A program made the translations under genes and the position numbers. This document shows, one piece after another, positions 5,488 through 57,430 of a stretch of DNA of 64,000 bases. Location: assembly GCA_036171915.1 (NCBI GenBank), contig JAVHRY010000092.1, positions 15,298-79,297 on the forward strand, in the 5' to 3' direction. Under the pieces are notes generated by a model. It searched no databases and was not told the origin of the DNA. It saw only the letters and a list, made by a program, of their open reading frames with translations. The stretch is from Elusimicrobiales bacterium. Lineage in GTDB: Bacteria; Elusimicrobiota; Elusimicrobia; Elusimicrobiales; UBA9959. Every line of letters starts with the position of its first letter. Position 1 is the first letter of the stretch.

Positions 5488-6597
5488 TTATACTATTTTC
5501 CGGAACCGCAGGCTCACCACGGCTCCGCCGTCCGGAGAGGGCTGCACGCTTATCCGCCCGCCGTGCTCGTCCATTATCTGGCGGGCCAGGTAAAGCCCCA
5601 GGCCGGTTCCATTTTCCTTGGTGGTAAAAAAAGGCTGAAAAATATTTTCAAGGACCGCCGGCTCCAGCCCCGGTCCGTTGTCGGAGATAGTTAAGAAAAC
5701 TTCGCCCTCCGCCTCAAGCCAGCCCGAAGCTATCTTTATAGTCCCGTCCCGCCGTCCGGCAAGCGCCTGTGCGGCATTATTAAGCAGGTTGTAAATTACG
5801 CTGTGCATGTAGCGCGGGTCCAGGAAGACCTTCGGCGCCTTGTCGAAGTTTTTTTCAACGCCGATCTTTGCGGCTTTAAGGGAGCTGTCCATAAGCCCCA
5901 GGGCGTATTCGGCGGCTTCAGTTGCCGAATACGGTTCAAGCCGGCACATGCCGCTGTGCGAGAAATCCAGCAGGGTCTTAACTATTTTAGAAGCGCGCCG
6001 CGCGTTGCGCTCTATCAGCTCCGCCGAAGACCGGACCTGCTCCGTCTGGCCCTCCTGCGCCCGCAGCAGTTCCGAGGCGGACAGGATAACGTGCAGCGGG
6101 CTCTTTATATCGTGCGCGAACATGGAGGTGAGCTGGCCGATGGAGGTGAGGCGCCCCAGTTTGCGGGCCGCGTTACGGAAAGCGTGGGGGTCTTTGAGCA
6201 GCGCCCACTCGTCGGGGGAAACCGGGGACAGGTAAAGGCAGAAACCGTTGACCCCGCCGGCGTCGTCTTTAAGCGCCTGCGCCGTCAGAAAGATCCGGAC
6301 TATGCTGCGCTGGGCGGTAAGCAGGTAAAAACAGTAGTTGCGCACGATGCCGTTCTTAACGGCCAGCCCGGCCAGGCGCGAAAACTCCTTAAAGTCTTTT
6401 TCAAGCATCAGGGACGCTGCGGAGTTCCCGGTTATGGCGTTTTTTTCCCAGCCGAGCAGGACCAGGGCGCTGTTATTTACCAGCAGTACGGTAAGTTGCC
6501 TGTCCAGCACCAGCGCGGGCTCCGGCGAATTGACGAAAATAGAGTTAAAAAGGCTGCGCTGTATTCCGTGCAGTTGAGACTCGTCGCTTCCGGTCAT
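5488..6597 (-). CDS. Soluble PAS-domain sensor histidine kinase
   Basis: H-box FAHDIKSPLH, N-box LLNNAAQA, G-boxes DNGPGL and GTGLGL. No obvious TM segment. Its start overlaps the upstream stop (ATGA). Confidence 0.85.
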   Translation of the reverse strand: MTGSDESQLHGIQRSLFNSIFVNSPEPALVLDRQLTVLLVNNSALVLLGWEKNAITGNSAASLMLEKDFKEFSRLAGLAVKNGIVRNYCFYLLTAQRSIVRIFLTAQALKDDAGGVNGFCLYLSPVSPDEWALLKDPHAFRNAARKLGRLTSIGQLTSMFAHDIKSPLHVILSASELLRAQEGQTEQVRSSAELIERNARRASKIVKTLLDFSHSGMCRLEPYSATEAAEYALGLMDSSLKAAKIGVEKNFDKAPKVFLDPRYMHSVIYNLLNNAAQALAGRRDGTIKIASGWLEAEGEVFLTISDNGPGLEPAVLENIFQPFFTTKENGTGLGLYLARQIMDEHGGRISVQPSPDGGAVVSLRFRKIV

Positions 6598-15228: not shown

Positions 15229-15312
15229 TGGGCATGGTGGGACTCGAACCCACACGGCCTTGCGGCCAACGAATTTTAAGTCCGTCGCGTCTACCAGTTC
15301 CGCCACAAGCCC
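15229..15312 (-). tRNA. tRNA-Leu (anticodon UAA), 84 nt, long variable arm, no encoded CCA
   Basis: The reverse complement folds as a cloverleaf: acceptor GGGCUUG/CAUGCCC (one U:U mismatch), D-arm GCGGAACUGGUAGACGC, anticodon loop CUUAAAA, variable arm UGGCCGCAAGGCCGU, and T-arm GUGGGUUCGAGUCCCAC. Confidence 0.9.
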
Positions 15313-22005: not shown

Positions 22006-22803
22006 ATGCACCCGATAATTTTTCAGCTTGGCTCATTCAAATTCCCGTCTTACGGCCTTATGGTCGCAACCGGCTACCTGGCAGCCATACTGTACATCCT
22101 CCGCAAGGCCGGCCGAGCCGGCTTCAGAAAAGAGGACCTGTCCGACCTGATATTTTACTCCGTGCTCTCAGGCATGGCGGGAGCCAAGCTCTTCTATGCC
22201 GCCACTTACTGGAGGGAATTCGGAGCCACTTTCTACGGCAGGGCGGCCTATCTGCTTAGGACCTTCCAGTACGGCTTCGTATTTTACGGCGGGCTTATAG
22301 CCGGCGGGGCGGCGTTCTTTATTACCGCCGGCAGGAAGAAAATGACGGCGCTAAAAGCCGCCGACCTGTGCGCGCCCGCCCTGGCGCTGGGCCACGCCTT
22401 CGGCCGCATCGGCTGTTTTTTAGCCGGCTGCTGCCACGGCAGCCCCACCTCCTGCGCCCTCAGCGTCACTTTTAACGACCCGGCTTCCGAAGTTAATCCA
22501 CTTTACCTCGGGGTGCCGCTGCACCCTACCCAGCTTTACGAATCCGCCGGCAACTTTATTATTTTCCTGGCGCTTAATGCCGCACTCTCCCGCTCGCTCA
22601 AAGGCAGGCTGCCGGCGGGCGCCGTCATAACGCTTTACGCCGCTCTTTATTCCCTGGAAAGGTTCCTGGTTGAATTTTTACGGGGGGACGACCGCGGCGC
22701 CATGCATTTCGGTCTCTCGCCGGCACAATTAATTTCGGCGGCTGTTTATGCCGCGGCGGTCATATTGCTGATAAAGGTAATGTCTAAAAATGAAAAAGAA
22801 TAA
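22006..22803 (+). CDS. lgt: Prolipoprotein diacylglyceryl transferase
   Basis: Polytopic membrane protein with the Lgt signature GRIGCFLAGCCHG and HPTQLYES. Confidence 0.9.
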   Translation: MHPIIFQLGSFKFPSYGLMVATGYLAAILYILRKAGRAGFRKEDLSDLIFYSVLSGMAGAKLFYAATYWREFGATFYGRAAYLLRTFQYGFVFYGGLIAGGAAFFITAGRKKMTALKAADLCAPALALGHAFGRIGCFLAGCCHGSPTSCALSVTFNDPASEVNPLYLGVPLHPTQLYESAGNFIIFLALNAALSRSLKGRLPAGAVITLYAALYSLERFLVEFLRGDDRGAMHFGLSPAQLISAAVYAAAVILLIKVMSKNEKE

Positions 22804-23704
22804 ACTGTCTTACTCGGGCGAGCCCTGCCGGCTTGACGTTTTTCTGACGCAGACCGGAGAAAATTTTTCCCGTTCTTTCGTGCGCCACATGATAGAGGGC
22901 GGCCTGGTAACGGTTAACGGCGCTGAAAAAAAACCCGCCTTCGTGCTTAACCCCGGGGACGAGGTCACGGTATCAGCCCCGGCTTCGGGGGAACTGCAGG
23001 CCGGTTTTGAGGACCTGGTATTTTTCGAGGACAAGTCCCTGATGGCCATAAACAAGCCGGCCGGCCTTTCAGTACACCCGAACTCAGCCAACTGGGAGGT
23101 AAACCCGCAGGCGGCCCTGCTGGGCGAGCCTACCCTTGTGTCCCTGATCTTTTCGGCAAGGCCTAAAATGGCGAAGATGGGGCTTGAAAGGCTGGGGCTG
23201 GTGCACCGCCTGGACCGCGACACCAGCGGCCTTATGCTGCTGGCAAAAACCCCCGAGGCCCAGGAGGCGCTTACGGAAGGCTTCCGGGAGCGCAGGATGG
23301 AGAAGACCTACGTAGGCGCCATAACCGGTATCCCTAAATTAAAAAAAGGACTTATAGACGCGCCCATCGGCCGGGCCAGCGGATTTAAAAAGATTAAAGT
23401 CTGGGAGTACGGCAGGGAAGCGCGAACGGAATACACCGTAAAGGAAACTGGTAAAAAATGCGCGCTGCTGGAAATACACCCGACTACCGGACGCACCAAC
23501 CAGATAAGGATACACCTGGCGCACATAGGCCACCCCATAATAGGGGACAAACTTTACGGCGGCCCCGTTGCGGAGCGCATGCTGCTGCACTCGTTCTCTC
23601 TGGTTTTCGCCCACCCCGTGACCGGGAAGAAAACAAAGATCAAGTCCCCCCTCCCGGAGGACTTTAAGACATTGTGGAAAAAAATAAAGGCGGGCAGCAG
23701 GTGA
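22790..23704 (+). CDS. rluD: RluA/RluD-family 23S rRNA pseudouridine synthase
   Basis: N-terminal S4-like region, catalytic HRLDRDTSGLMLLAK, and a conserved Y..(L/V)..G motif region. Confidence 0.85.
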   Translation: MKKNKLSYSGEPCRLDVFLTQTGENFSRSFVRHMIEGGLVTVNGAEKKPAFVLNPGDEVTVSAPASGELQAGFEDLVFFEDKSLMAINKPAGLSVHPNSANWEVNPQAALLGEPTLVSLIFSARPKMAKMGLERLGLVHRLDRDTSGLMLLAKTPEAQEALTEGFRERRMEKTYVGAITGIPKLKKGLIDAPIGRASGFKKIKVWEYGREARTEYTVKETGKKCALLEIHPTTGRTNQIRIHLAHIGHPIIGDKLYGGPVAERMLLHSFSLVFAHPVTGKKTKIKSPLPEDFKTLWKKIKAGSR

Positions 23705-23740
23705 CGGACTGGTACTACTGTGTCACAAAAAGGATGCTCC

Positions 23741-23909
23741 TAGGAGCCTGTCCGACATAAGCGATTTCGCCTGTAATTGCCGCTTTTGTCCTGCGCCTTT
23801 GCGACGCTCAACTTACAACCTCCGTCGAGGGTGCTCGTTTCGCGTCGCTTCGGCTCGGCTCCAAAATCGGCAATTTCGTCATGAAAGCCTTATGTCGGAC
23901 AGGCTCCTA
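23741..23909. mobile_element. MITE/Correia-like nonautonomous element, copy 1 (165-bp body, perfect 19-bp TIRs, TA on both flanks)
   Basis: TA-GGAGCCTGTCCGACATAAG...CTTATGTCGGACAGGCTCC-TA. The body is a long imperfect palindrome. A second copy with 159/165 identity lies in reverse orientation at 56714-56882. Confidence 0.8.
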
Positions 23910-24131
23910 GTAAAAAATATTTACCGCAGAGTCGAAGAGGATGCAGAGTGGAGCAAAGCGACACCGCAGTAAAGAGTATCGGAGAAAAGGATTATGACAA
24001 CTCTGCGCCTCCGCGGTGAAATATGACTGGCTATGTCCCCGGTTAAAGCCCCTGCTGCGCATAACCTTCACGAATTTGCTGACACAATAGCACCGGGGAA
24101 ATGGACTAATAACCCGGCCCTCGGCCGACGG

Positions 24132-25739
24132 CTATAATTTAGATACCGAAGCGAAAACCCGGAAATCCAGCCTGGGGAAAAGGCTGTTCTGTTTTTCAAG
24201 CGCGGAAAGCGCGGCCTCGTCCACGCCCTTCTCTATAACTTCACCCAGGAGTTTTAACGCGTTAACCGCGTGGTCTTCAAGGCGGGACTTGGCGTAATCC
24301 GAGTGCGAACCTATATACATAAGGAAGGCCCAGTCCGAAGATTGCGCGAGCAGCGTTTCACGCGCGGCCTGGTTAAGCGCCCTGGCGGCCAGGCCGGAAA
24401 GGTCCTGGTTGCGGAAGCGGTTGGCCGTCTCTATCATCTTGTCGGTGGCGGAATATACGGCGGAATAAATAAAATCGTTCTTATCGTTAACCCACGGGTC
24501 AAAATAGCCGTTCTCCCCCCACGAAGAAATACCCGGGGTAATTTCGGGCGGCTCCTGGCAGGAATTAAGATATTCTGAAGGCGTGGCGAACTGCAGCGGC
24601 AGGCGTTCCGCGCGTATTTTCCGGATGACGGCCTCCAGGAAAGCCGGCCCCTCAAACCACCAGTGCCCGAAAAGCTCGGCGTCATAGCAGCTCACTATAA
24701 GCGGCCGTGTTCCGCGCGCCGCGTAGAATTCATCCGTCTGCCTGATGCGCCGCGCCAGGAAATCCGAGGCGTGCGCCTCAACCCTGGCCAACGCCGCCTC
24801 GGGGTCGTAATACTGCTTGGCCGCCAGCTCGGTGCCGCCGCCGGTTATCCTGTGGTATTTAAGCCCCAGCGGGCGCCGGGCCCCGTCGGCGCCAAGGTAG
24901 GGGCGCACATATTCATACTCCCCGTCATAGCCGAAGTCGCGGTAAAATTCGCGGTAGGCCGGATCTCCGGGATAGCCGAACTTGGCGCTCCAGACCTCGC
25001 GGGAGCTTGAGGCGTCCCTGGCAAAAATGCCGAGCCCGTTGGACGTGCGATAGGGCGAATAAACTCCGTTGGGGGCCGAGGGATAAGCCAGCTCGACAGA
25101 GTGGGATTCCGTAAAAGTGTAGCTAAACCCTGAAAGTTTAAGATAAGAATTAAGGCGCGGCTCATAGGCGCACTCGGGCAGCCAGAAGCCGGAGGGCTTG
25201 CGGTTGAACCTGTCCAGGTAATCTTCAGCGGCCACCGCCACCTGGGCGCGCACGGCCTCGGGCCGGGCCAGCAGCGGAAGCACGGCGTGCGTGGCGGAGG
25301 TGGTTATTATTTCTATCTGCCCGGAATACTGAAGAGCCTTAAGGGGAGTTATAAGGTCGCCGCTGTATTTATGCAGCAGGGAGGCGGCGTCCAGGTAAAG
25401 TTTATGGTAAAGTTTTACCGTCTTGAGCAGAGCGCCGTCGTCGCGCGCGCGGTCCAGCTCCCGGCCGATAAGTTCAAGGCGGGACTCCACATAAAGCTGC
25501 AGCTTGTTTTCAAGCGCCTCGTTTTCGAGCATCGCCCCCAGCGTCGGAGAAATTGAGACGGCTATGGCCGGGCGTATACCCTCCGCGGCCAGGCGTTCAA
25601 GCATGGAAATTATGGGGACGTAAGTTTCGACCACGGCCTCGAAGAACCAGCTCTCCTCAAGAAAAGCGGAGTCCTGCGGGTGATTCACGTAAGGCAGGTG
25701 CGCGTGAAGCAGGAACATCAGCGTGGCGCGGGAGCTCAT
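24132..25739 (-). CDS. Glycoside hydrolase family 57 protein (glycogen branching-enzyme type)
   Basis: N-terminal FLLHAHLPYVNHP signature of GH57 enzymes. Length (~535 aa) and C-terminal helical region are typical of GH57 branching enzymes. Confidence 0.8.
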   Translation of the reverse strand: MSSRATLMFLLHAHLPYVNHPQDSAFLEESWFFEAVVETYVPIISMLERLAAEGIRPAIAVSISPTLGAMLENEALENKLQLYVESRLELIGRELDRARDDGALLKTVKLYHKLYLDAASLLHKYSGDLITPLKALQYSGQIEIITTSATHAVLPLLARPEAVRAQVAVAAEDYLDRFNRKPSGFWLPECAYEPRLNSYLKLSGFSYTFTESHSVELAYPSAPNGVYSPYRTSNGLGIFARDASSSREVWSAKFGYPGDPAYREFYRDFGYDGEYEYVRPYLGADGARRPLGLKYHRITGGGTELAAKQYYDPEAALARVEAHASDFLARRIRQTDEFYAARGTRPLIVSCYDAELFGHWWFEGPAFLEAVIRKIRAERLPLQFATPSEYLNSCQEPPEITPGISSWGENGYFDPWVNDKNDFIYSAVYSATDKMIETANRFRNQDLSGLAARALNQAARETLLAQSSDWAFLMYIGSHSDYAKSRLEDHAVNALKLLGEVIEKGVDEAALSALEKQNSLFPRLDFRVFASVSKL

Positions 25740-54643: not shown

Positions 54644-55417
54644 ATGCGGAAAATATTATTTATAATCCCCGCCTGCCTGCTGGCCGCCGGCTGCGTAGCC
54701 ACTCAGCAGGATATGCTGCAGATGCAGAGCCAGATGGACGACCTCAACAACAGCCTGGCGAACATGCAGAAGAACCAGGCCGAGTTGGCGGTCAAGATGG
54801 AGGAGCTTTCCAAAAATCTTACCGCCTCCTCCGAAAGCATGAAAGATATTTCCACCCAGATGGAAAAACTCTCGGGCCGCCTTGACGAGCGCGATACCGC
54901 CATGAACAAGCGCGTCAACGCCATCGGCCAGACCGTAAGGAAACAGCAGGAAGAGGTTGAAACCGCCCTGTTGCCCGCCAAGCTCTACAACGACGCCTAC
55001 AACGCATTTATCAGCAATAACTTCGACGGGGCCGCCACCGGCTTTAAGACCTATCTGTCCAAGTTCCCCGGCGGAGAGATGTCCGAGGGCGCCTATTTTT
55101 ACCTGGGTGAGTCCCTGTATTTTAAAGAACGCTGGCAGGACGCGGCACTGGCCTATGCCACGGTCATTGAAAAATTCCCCAAATCAGCCAGGATCCCGGC
55201 CGCCAGGCTAAAATACGCCATGGCCCTGCTGAAGCTTCCCGAAGACAAAAAAAGCGAAGCGCTTAACTACCTGCGCTCCGTAGTAAAGGATTACCCCGCC
55301 TCGCAGGAAGCTAAAACAGCGAAAGACTACATTAACCGTATTTCCCCGCCAAAACCCGCGGCGGGCCGCGCAAAGCCGGCAAAAGCCCCGGCCAAGGTCC
55401 CGGCTAAAAAAGGCTGA
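54644..55417 (+). CDS. cpoB: Tol-Pal system protein CpoB/YbgF (coiled-coil + TPR)
   Basis: Signal/lipobox-like N-terminus, a long coiled-coil, and a C-terminal TPR block (YNDAYNAF...GAYFYLGESLY...). Position next to pal. Confidence 0.75.
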   Translation: MRKILFIIPACLLAAGCVATQQDMLQMQSQMDDLNNSLANMQKNQAELAVKMEELSKNLTASSESMKDISTQMEKLSGRLDERDTAMNKRVNAIGQTVRKQQEEVETALLPAKLYNDAYNAFISNNFDGAATGFKTYLSKFPGGEMSEGAYFYLGESLYFKERWQDAALAYATVIEKFPKSARIPAARLKYAMALLKLPEDKKSEALNYLRSVVKDYPASQEAKTAKDYINRISPPKPAAGRAKPAKAPAKVPAKKG

Positions 55418-55426
55418 ACCGCCTCT

Positions 55427-56716
55427 ATGAAAGTTATTACGGCCATGGCAGCCGCGTTTTTAGCGCTGGCTCCGCGCGCCGGGGCGGGCGCCGATATCTA
55501 TATCGGGATAGCCCCCGGCCAGGAAGTTAAAAAAACCTCCGTGGCGCTGGCGAAGTTCCTCCCGGAAAGAGACCAGAGCCCTGAAGACCTGGCCCTGGCC
55601 GAAACCTTCCGCGAGATAGTGCGTTCCGATTTGCTGTACTCCCGCTACTTTGACGTAAAGGAAGACCCCCTCGCGGCCGCTAACCTTGATGCCGGCCCGC
55701 AATCCCTGGCGTACTGGAAAAATTTATCCGGCAGTCTTGTAACCGGCAAGGCCAGGGACGCGGGCCCGGTGTGGACCTTTACCCCCCGCCTATACGACCT
55801 GGCCTCCGGCAAGGGCGTTATTGAAAAATTTTTCCAGGGTGAAAAAAAAGCCATGCGCCGGGCCGCGCACCTGTTCTCCGACGACGTGATATTGCGCCTC
55901 ACCGGGCGCCTCGGCATAGCGCATTCGAAGCTGGCTTTCGCCAACAATTCCACGGGGCGCAAGGAGATCTACACCGTTGATTACGACGGGGAAAATCTTA
56001 CGCGCCTGACTTCGGACAACAGCATAAACCTGCTGCCGCGTTGGTCGGCTGACGCTTCGCGCATCTACTACACCACCTACCGCTGGGGCAACCCGGACAT
56101 GTTCGAGATAGACCTGCGGGCTGGCAAGATACGCCCGTTCACCACCTTCCAGGGGCTCAACATCCCCGGCGGCTTCTCTCCCGACGGGCTTACCATGGTA
56201 ATGACGCTTTCGCGCGGCGACGACCCCAATATCTATACGCTTAACGTGGTCACCAAAGAATTAAAGAAGCTGCTCCAGGGCATCGGAGTAAGTTCTTCCC
56301 CCACCTGGTCTCCGGACGGGAAACAGGTGGCTTTTGTTTCCGACCGCTCAGGGAACCCGCAGGTTTACGTGTTGGAACTGGCCACCCGGAAAACCCGCCG
56401 CCTTACGCGCATGAACTGGTGCGATTCACCCTCCTGGTCGCCCTCAGGGGAGTGGATAATTTTTTCCGGCAGGGAAACAGGCAAGGAGAACCTGAACATA
56501 TTCATCACCGACCTTACCGGCAGCCAGATACGCCGCCTGACCAGCAAGGCGGGCGCCAACGAAGACCCCTCCTGGTCGCCTGACGGCAGGTTCATCGCGT
56601 TTACCTCAACCCGCCGGGGACGCCGGGAAATTTTTATAATGGACTACGACGGCAGCGCTCCCCACCCGCTGACGGAACTTAGGGGGCAGTCTTTTACGCC
56701 CAATTGGTCGCCTTAG
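55427..56716 (+). CDS. tolB: Tol-Pal system beta-propeller protein TolB
   Basis: TolB N-terminal domain followed by repeated P.WSPDG blades (PTWSPDGKQVAF, PSWSPDGRFIAF and others). The stop TAG lies on the TA flank of MITE copy 2. Confidence 0.9.
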   Translation: MKVITAMAAAFLALAPRAGAGADIYIGIAPGQEVKKTSVALAKFLPERDQSPEDLALAETFREIVRSDLLYSRYFDVKEDPLAAANLDAGPQSLAYWKNLSGSLVTGKARDAGPVWTFTPRLYDLASGKGVIEKFFQGEKKAMRRAAHLFSDDVILRLTGRLGIAHSKLAFANNSTGRKEIYTVDYDGENLTRLTSDNSINLLPRWSADASRIYYTTYRWGNPDMFEIDLRAGKIRPFTTFQGLNIPGGFSPDGLTMVMTLSRGDDPNIYTLNVVTKELKKLLQGIGVSSSPTWSPDGKQVAFVSDRSGNPQVYVLELATRKTRRLTRMNWCDSPSWSPSGEWIIFSGRETGKENLNIFITDLTGSQIRRLTSKAGANEDPSWSPDGRFIAFTSTRRGRREIFIMDYDGSAPHPLTELRGQSFTPNWSP

Positions 56717-56882
56717 GAGCCTGTCCGGCATAAGGCTTTCATGACGAAATTGACGATTTTGGAGCCGAGCCGAAGCGACGCGAAACGAGCACCCTCGACG
56801 GAGGTTGTAAGTTGAGCGTCGCGAAGGCGCAGGACAAAAGCGGCAATTGCAGGCGAAATTGCTTATGTCGGACAGGCTCTTA
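56714..56882. mobile_element. MITE/Correia-like nonautonomous element, copy 2 (reverse orientation relative to copy 1)
   Basis: TA-GGAGCCTGTCCGGCATAAG...CTTATGTCGGACAGGCTCT-TA. 159/165 identical to the reverse complement of copy 1, with no indels. Confidence 0.8.
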
Positions 56883-56904: not shown

Positions 56905-56931
56905 AAGCGGGACAAGCGTTCCGCTTTTTTT
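56905..56931 (+). terminator. Rho-independent terminator of the pal-cpoB-tolB unit, displaced from the tolB stop by the MITE
   Basis: AAGCGGGAC-AAGC-GTTCCGCTT (9-bp stem, one G:U pair) followed by TTTTTTT. Confidence 0.7.
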
Positions 56932-57430
56932 ATTTGCAGGCCGCGGAACGTATCTTTTCAAGCAGGGAAGCGAAGAACCCGGCCTCGCGCCCGGAAGCGC
57001 GCACGGGATGGAAATTAAGCCCGCGGCCGCTTTTAAGCGCCGCAGCGAGCTCTTTGTCCAGCAGGGCGAGGAACTCCGGGCCCAGCCGCTTGCGGCGCTC
57101 CGACAACATACCAGGGTTTATGACATCCTCCAGCGTGAAATATTCCTGGCCGCAAAAAGCCTGAATATAAGGGCTCTCCATGAACTCCGCCACGGCGTCC
57201 TCGTCGGAGAGGCTTTTGAGCCGCTTTACCGCCAGCAGGCCGCAGACCAGGCGGGAGTCCCTGGCGGGGCGGCCGTAGCCGGCGGAAAAATACCGGCCGT
57301 ACTCGCCGTCCAGTTTTTCCCAGGGCAGGGCCTCCGCCAGTTTAAGCCAGCGGTTTGAGCCGGCAAGTTTTTCGCCAAGGTGAAAAAGTTTGCCGAAAAG
57401 CGTGGGATTGAATTTTTCAGAGCGGTACAT
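56930..57430 (-). pseudogene. Orphan IS5/IS1182-type transposase N-terminal (DUF772-like) fragment lacking the DDE catalytic region
   Basis: LPWEKL...GRPARDSRLVCGLLAVKRLKSLSDEDAVAEFMESPYIQAFCG matches the InsH N-terminal domain pattern. Only 166 aa; no DDE domain and no flanking IS ends seen. Confidence 0.6.

Follow-up and report, generated by a model that had tools for sequence, protein, structure and literature searches.

The 64-kb stretch of Elusimicrobiales DNA that we analysed (referred to here as the window) contains a short repeat with terminal inverted repeats (TIRs) and flanking TA dinucleotides in the gap between two convergent genes, which raises the question of what kind of element this is, what moves it, and whether it matters to its host. 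An initial annotation of the sequence had described such an element with a second, inverted copy of equal length and no internal ORF, and this description was borne out in each respect. Copy 1 is a 165-bp sequence on the plus strand (23743–23907), in the consensus orientation and with the form of a long imperfect hairpin, which begins 39 bp past the stop codon of an rluD-like pseudouridine synthase gene (22790–23704, plus strand) and lies between this and a convergent GH57 (branching-enzyme) gene (24132–25739, minus strand). Its left TIR (23743–23761, plus strand) is GGAGCCTGTCCGACATAAG, and its right TIR (23889–23907, minus strand) is the perfect complement of the left, with no mismatches in either of these 19-bp sequences. 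The TA target-site duplications are found at 23741–23742, inside a CTAG at 23740–23743, and at 23908–23909, inside a CTAG at 23907–23910, and are assigned on the basis of the sequence together with the end statistics described below.

Copy 2 (56716–56880, minus strand) is also 165 bp long and is reversed relative to copy 1, from which it differs by six substitutions (element positions 1, 21, 32, 58, 128 and 153) and no indels, making the two 96.4% identical. Its TIRs (56716–56734, plus strand, and 56862–56880, minus strand) each have one mismatch to GGAGCCTGTCCGACATAAG, the terminal base at 56880 being T where the consensus has C, and it too is flanked by TA on both the low-coordinate (56714–56715) and high-coordinate (56881–56882) sides. 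We found no credible ORF inside the 165-bp element, as the sole candidate, of 57 aa, begins inside it and runs out. We give no credence to the explanation that the repeat is a chance inverted repeat or a piece of a larger segmental duplication: the TIR sequence has four matches in the window at up to three mismatches where none are expected (100 shuffles), and the similarity between the two copies ends at the element boundaries with unrelated flanks, and there is therefore no segmental duplication. The initial annotation had asked whether only these two copies exist within such a duplication, and what we found besides the unrelated flanks was dozens of copies at unrelated sites in other genomes.

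The history of the copy 2 site can be read from related genomes. The copy is inserted at the stop codon of a tolB-like gene with PD40 repeats (55427–56716, plus strand), where the TAG stop (56714–56716) consists of the duplicated TA plus the terminal G of the element (56716), and it now separates this stop codon from the intrinsic terminator of the gene, a hairpin with a T-run (56914–56936, plus strand) that is conserved in relatives. All 34 of the related metagenome contigs we compared (TolB 71–82% identical) are without the element here; in these, the gene ends ...AACTGG(A/T)(G/C)CCC(N) followed by a single stop codon, with the terminator 20–40 nt further on, and the window becomes colinear with them through stop codon and terminator once the MITE and one TA are removed. 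Judged from this alignment of sequences, copy 2 is an insertion, with the empty sites drawn from other species, and this supplies the empty-site comparison which the initial annotation had proposed. The reconstructed empty alleles of the two window sites are ...GATGCTCCTAGTAAAAAA... and ...GGTCGCCTTAGGATATTG.... Exact-protein look-ups with TolB and GH57 gave no match and the rluD contigs all end in the MITE, and no same-species empty site was recovered by these means; nor did the retrieved loci offer an empty site for any other copy, and they include a single orthologous filled site (L050/L097, see below).

We scanned species-representative genomes (596 Gb) with an 18-nt core of the TIR and obtained at least 106 loci, with approximately 90% of the matches listed coming from Elusimicrobia/Elusimicrobiales MAGs (at least 24 assemblies). 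Isolated matches in other phyla fit the approximately 35 chance matches calculated for a pattern of such length in 596 Gb, and there was no TIR match in viral contigs. The retrieved loci contain 36–37 TIR pairs with a modal spacing of 165 bp, and mostly 161–165 bp in the 165-bp convention, giving at least 36 complete copies plus many contig-end fragments from at least 24 Elusimicrobia MAG assemblies. BLAST searches with a window copy likewise returned full-length copies with 76–95% identity as well as many that were truncated at contig ends. The 165-bp repeat is therefore a genuine non-autonomous MITE of a multi-copy family, as the initial annotation had expected from two copies, and this family is widespread in Elusimicrobia; the element shows all that is generally looked for in a bacterial MITE: it is short and non-coding, has TIRs, occurs as dispersed copies, and has a target-site duplication and presence/absence variation. 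We found no paper on any MITE in Elusimicrobia.

The element is also a systematic cause of assembly breaks in MAGs, and public short (Logan) contigs carrying the exact rluD gene of the window in every case break off 24 nt into copy 1. In the Elusimicrobiales MAG JBAYJD01, approximately 30 contigs start or stop within the element, at a depth of 115–118 nt, in copies of a divergent subfamily (contig-break loci of this type include L015, L027, L032, L035, L049, L053, L058, L063, L067, L082–L085 and L093, and also L107–L109). Length variants of 127, 190, 210, 219, 242 and 265 bp with internal insertions, duplications or deletions were observed as well (L003 486–750, L011 6074–6257, L044 1945–2103, L054 3232–3450, L074 5826–6035, L059 1555–1796, L017 6549–6738, and L001 2822–2948), and the recurrence of a 219–265-bp form within MAG MGVA01 suggests a longer subfamily.

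Which of the flanking bases are duplicated, and hence where the element ends, was decided from 146 confirmed element ends with both ends pooled. Deviations from the consensus C,T,A,G,G, in which the last G is the first base of GAGCC, amounted to 13.7, 13.0, 11.0, 2.7 and 0%, respectively, and the inner G alone was deviant twice compared with 18 times for the outer C alone (binomial p = 0.0004). As sites within the TIR vary by 0–3%, the inner G (2.7%) is as conserved as the TIR and thus belongs to the element. These statistics support a 165-bp element, GGAGCC...GGCTCC, which duplicates TA, the outer C and G being a flanking preference (C|TA|G), from which we infer the cut geometry at C|TA|G. 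It had been noted earlier that TA is self-complementary and could equally be the outermost bases of the TIR, but matched non-canonical dinucleotides are seen in some copies (TG/TG in L017 and L098, and CA/CA in L029), so the dinucleotide is truly duplicated and no part of the inverted repeat.

The candidate that we rejected at this point was an IS5-style element of 163 bp (GAGCC...GGCTC) duplicating all four bases of a CTAR target, which was prompted by the flanks of the window copies, CTAG/CTAG for copy 1 and CTAA/CTAA for copy 2 (read on its own minus strand); when only TA is duplicated, the matching A/A (T/T) of copy 2 has to be a coincidence. A 4-bp unit would also agree with reports on the IS1182 family, whose members are reported to prefer short palindromic targets, including the 4-bp GGCC of ISPsy36 (PMC8027508), and with the 4-bp direct repeats listed for a MITE derived from ISMac2 (PMC3852290). 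However, under a 4-bp duplication the inner and outer flank positions should vary to the same degree, which is at odds with the two versus 18 deviant ends and with an inner G that varies no more than the TIR does. Five copies have a base other than C at the outer position of one side, and four of them lack the matching inner base that this model calls for on the other. We therefore regard the 4-bp duplication as quite unlikely, and the A/A match of copy 2 is most readily explained by a CTAA site combined with a G-to-A change at the end of the element. The TA and 19-bp TIR boundaries given in the initial annotation thus describe the ends better than a 4-bp duplication does.

Two full-length elements with the TIRs of the MITE indicate what may move it. 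These are approximately 1.66 kb long (L026 1524–3182 and L056 3173–4835) and contain one transposase ORF each (456 or 479 aa) scoring 380 bits on the NCBIfam model NF033551 (IS1182 family transposase; cut-off 270), with further matches to DUF772, DDE_Tnp_1 and DDE_Tnp_1_6, and far higher scores on the IS1182 model than on IS5 models. Over 18–23 nt, the ends of both show no difference from the TIRs of the MITE, among them the left TIR of copy 1, and they are flanked in the same manner (cta|GGAGCC...GGCTCC|tag), so that both the TIRs and the target with its flanks agree between the MITE and an autonomous element. The two insertion sequences (ISs) are mutually only 74% identical, yet have the same ends; both come from MAG MNUR01, which also holds approximately 13 MITE loci. 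More IS1182-type copies occur in L065 and L049, and IS and MITE are found together in MAGs MNUR01 and JBAYJD01. The interior of the MITE shares no sequence with the ISs beyond the approximately 19–23 bp at the ends, and the ISs are only a candidate source from which the MITE may have been derived, given how little sequence the two have in common.

The nearest annotated relatives of these transposases are encoded by genes named 'IS1182 family transposase' on plasmids (49–51% amino acid identity). The relatives on the alphaproteobacterial plasmids of Roseomonas and Bradyrhizobium, at 49% amino acid identity, end in CTAG|GAGC(N)TGTC...|CTAG in the copies compared, and share CTAG|GAGCNTGTC ends; all 14 full copies of the Bradyrhizobium IS lie in canonical CTAG and so are uninformative on non-canonical flanks. 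Since the same ends and CTAG recur in the Elusimicrobia and plasmid elements, they are characteristic of this IS1182 subgroup. In the literature we found neither a report of TA duplication by IS1182 members nor a duplication length for this subgroup.

We infer that the DDE transposase of the 1.66-kb IS1182-family ISs would move the MITE in trans, given that IS and MITE have the same terminal inverted repeats (GGAGCCTGTCCGACATAAG), and the explanation we hold to be very probably correct is a MITE family with an IS1182-family partner, a C|TA|G target and a duplicated TA. The initial annotation had favoured an IS630/Tc1-mariner transposase or a Correia-like element, and TA duplication in a CTAG-like target is indeed the classic IS630 pattern. 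The TA flanks expected of an IS630-mobilised element are statistically supported here, and NTAN is given as the IS630 target in PMC5678879. Against this, all four of the TIR-bounded or TIR-adjacent transposase genes we recovered belong to the IS1182 family and none is of the IS630 type, and every full-length element with these TIRs encodes an IS1182-family transposase, so the search for an IS630-like gene with matching TIRs led to IS1182 instead; the distant IS1182 elements on plasmids also have the same GGAGC termini and CTAG flanks. To our knowledge, Correia elements are restricted to Neisseria, and the TIR of our element presumably bears no resemblance to theirs. We consider mobilisation by IS630, or a Correia-like identity, to be very improbable, and the attribution to these families does not stand.

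In L070, a MITE at 5769–5931 is followed directly after a shared TA by a second TIR at 5936, and L049 (5981 onward) was noted in the same connection. This succession of a MITE and then a full-length IS1182-type element fits an insertion into the CTAG remade at the end of the MITE itself.

There is no homologue of the IS1182 transposase in the 64-kb window, and we rejected a DUF772 ORF beside copy 2 as a remnant of the partner IS because it is syntenic in relatives and shows no BLASTP kinship to the IS1182 transposase. DUF772 is the N-terminal domain of IS5-type transposases. The ORF (56930–57430, minus strand) encodes 166 aa and best matches positions 8–122 of the 419 positions of model NF033578; orthologues of the same length (L113 2920–3420 and L123 3818–4315) share the tolB / X / tdk / epimerase synteny in contigs where TolB is only 77–78% identical, and the protein resembles a transposase DNA-binding domain that is conserved on its own and has possibly been domesticated. 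In this neighbourhood, a gene for a YbgF/CpoB-like TPR protein lies ahead of the tolB-like gene (window 54644–56716), and no pal-like gene comes after it, the terminator being followed by the convergent DUF772 and tdk genes.

The choice of target has consequences for both the element and the genes that it enters. With a G at its start and a C at its end, the element remakes CTAG on both sides when it enters C|TA|G, and where the TA lies within a TAG stop it restores the stop codon, which makes insertion at a gene end harmless. Of the 36 complete copies, approximately ten lie directly against a TAG that ends a long ORF. CTAG itself is extremely scarce, with nine sites in the 64 kb (18153, 19995, 21993, 23740, 23907, 35283, 40896, 47357 and 50542) and observed/expected ratios of 0.04 and 0.16 under base composition and a Markov model, respectively, and two of these nine sites are the flanks of copy 1. 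CCAG and CTGG are enriched in the window (O/E 1.46). MITE flanks that have decayed in other MAGs read mainly CCAG or CTGG, as would be expected if very-short-patch-type repair acted on CTAG. What is of interest here is an element with G...C ends that regenerates both a scarce CTAG target and a TAG stop where CTAG is approximately 6- to 25-fold depleted.

The initial annotation had also proposed that the family was recently active in this genome. Copies 1 and 2 are each other's closest relatives in an alignment of 30 copies and share an A at alignment column 61 where all of the others have C or another base, and this private substitution, together with the 96.4% identity of the pair, fits amplification in the lineage of the window, while the 64 kb contain no transposase and at least one insertion in other genomes goes back far enough for two species to share it. 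The latter is an orthologous insertion in two species-level MAGs (L050 3347–3510 in MGVA01 and L097 2026–2112 in DMES01), in which the shared half of the MITE is approximately 92% identical compared with approximately 80–85% for the coding flanks, the L097 copy having lost the distal half. With an element at the same site in two species, the family is old; recent activity in this particular genome is hinted at by the two window copies, and the proposal stands to that extent only. Copies in different species are 86–95% identical compared with approximately 77% for the sole alignable flanking DNA, which could be due to horizontal spread, to gene conversion or to selection.

The long imperfect palindrome described in the initial annotation was confirmed by folding, in which either strand of the whole element formed a single extended, imperfect hairpin. 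The energies were −91 kcal/mol for one strand (z = −10.7) and −97 kcal/mol for the other (z = −11.8), and none of 200 shuffled sequences folded as stably. We examined covariation in an alignment of 30 full-length copies with a mean column identity of 90%, for which the consensus fold has 54 pairs and 97.2% of the cells are paired. Thirteen pairs were changed on both sides compared with 3.9 ± 1.3 in shuffles (0/500 reached 13) and 1–4 in slid controls, and examples include columns 76/88 (CG in 13 copies, GC in ten and UA in two) and 25/142 (CG in 23 and UA in five). Mis-oriented copies are no source of this signal, because reverse-complementing keeps Watson–Crick pairs in the same columns. The palindrome is thus kept paired through compensatory changes. 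We found no bias in orientation relative to neighbouring genes (ten copies in the same and nine in the opposite direction), no promoter-like or terminator-like motif inside the element, and no match in Rfam at the gathering or a permissive threshold (the best reached 16 bits compared with a gathering score of 73.5), all of which makes the pairing symmetric between strands. (Rfam matched just one family in the window, through a single tRNA gene at 15229–15312, minus strand.) A strand-specific RNA function is accordingly unlikely, and the covariation most likely has a cause at the DNA level, which would be either a structural need for transposition or the correction of quasi-palindromes by template switching, a mutational process known to be able to produce covariation without selection.

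The compensatory substitutions, the identity above that of the coding flanks, and the orthologous copy kept since before a speciation together form the case for a hairpin under selection, whether as a host structural element, such as a 3'-UTR stabiliser or processing site between stops and terminators, or because the IS1182-type transposase requires it for recognition, though on balance we think selection of either kind is improbable. In the first form, a former MITE would have been adopted by the host as a structured element (a 3'-UTR hairpin, RNase III site or DNA-binding site) whose function explains its conservation. Compensatory changes that maintain the entire hairpin, an identity of 86–95% between species with flanking DNA below approximately 80%, the retention of one orthologous insertion in two species with a MITE half that is better conserved than its coding flanks, and the position of copy 2 between stop codon and terminator, where it is presumably co-transcribed, would all be in keeping with such a role. 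However, a functional 3'-UTR element sits poorly with an orientation that is unbiased relative to adjacent genes (ten versus nine), with the lack of promoter or terminator motifs in the element and of any Rfam match, and with positions that are not conserved, the tolB site being empty in all 34 relatives; template switching could produce the covariation with no need of selection, and the similarity between species may reflect the horizontal spread of an active family. Adoption by the host is for these reasons rather unlikely, and we retain the reading of a mobile MITE with an IS1182-family partner. The covariation and cross-species conservation are nonetheless the only aspects that could make the element more than an ordinary MITE.

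The finding alters no general concept. It provides the Elusimicrobia, a phylum that has been little studied and is for the most part uncultured, with a defined high-copy mobile element and a candidate partner, explains many MAG contig breaks, and documents an IS1182 subgroup with a C|TA|G target and an apparent TA duplication, a behaviour usually tied to IS630.

Among known systems, the element is closest to the IS1182 subgroup recognised by NF033551 with GGAGC... termini in CTAG, exemplified by the elements on Bradyrhizobium septentrionale and Roseomonas sp. OT10 plasmids and the 1.66-kb elements of MAG MNUR01, with which it shares CTAG flanks and TIRs (GGAGCNTGTC) that are identical (Elusimicrobia) or related (alphaproteobacterial); it differs from these ISs in having no transposase gene, a length of 165 bp rather than 1.45–1.66 kb, and an unrelated interior. 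A preference for palindromic targets in general is attributed to IS1182 in a passage of PMC5678879 that cites earlier work. The nearest precedent, matched by description and not by sequence, is provided by the ISMac2-derived MITEs of Methanosarcina acetivorans, which have 160-bp (14 copies) and 169-bp (seven copies) forms with inverted repeats of 25–26 bp and also an IS1182 partner (PMC3852290). Like these, our element is approximately 160 bp long with inverted repeats and an IS1182-family partner, whereas theirs has an archaeal host and a direct repeat listed as 4 or 0 bp (PMC3852290) where ours is TA. With IS630-derived MITEs and the Correia elements of Neisseria it has in common its size, TIRs, TA duplication, CTAG-like target preference, intergenic or 3'-UTR sites and a hairpin-forming transcript, but the partner is IS1182, the TIR sequence is unrelated and the host belongs to another phylum. 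It resembles IS5 (target YTAR, 4-bp duplication) in its CTAG-centred palindromic target, the DUF772 + DDE_Tnp_1 architecture of the partner and termini with ...ATAAG, though the flank statistics reject a 4-bp duplication and the transposase fits the IS1182 model far better. Placed among these systems, the 165-bp repeat is a previously undescribed MITE of an ordinary and already known type.
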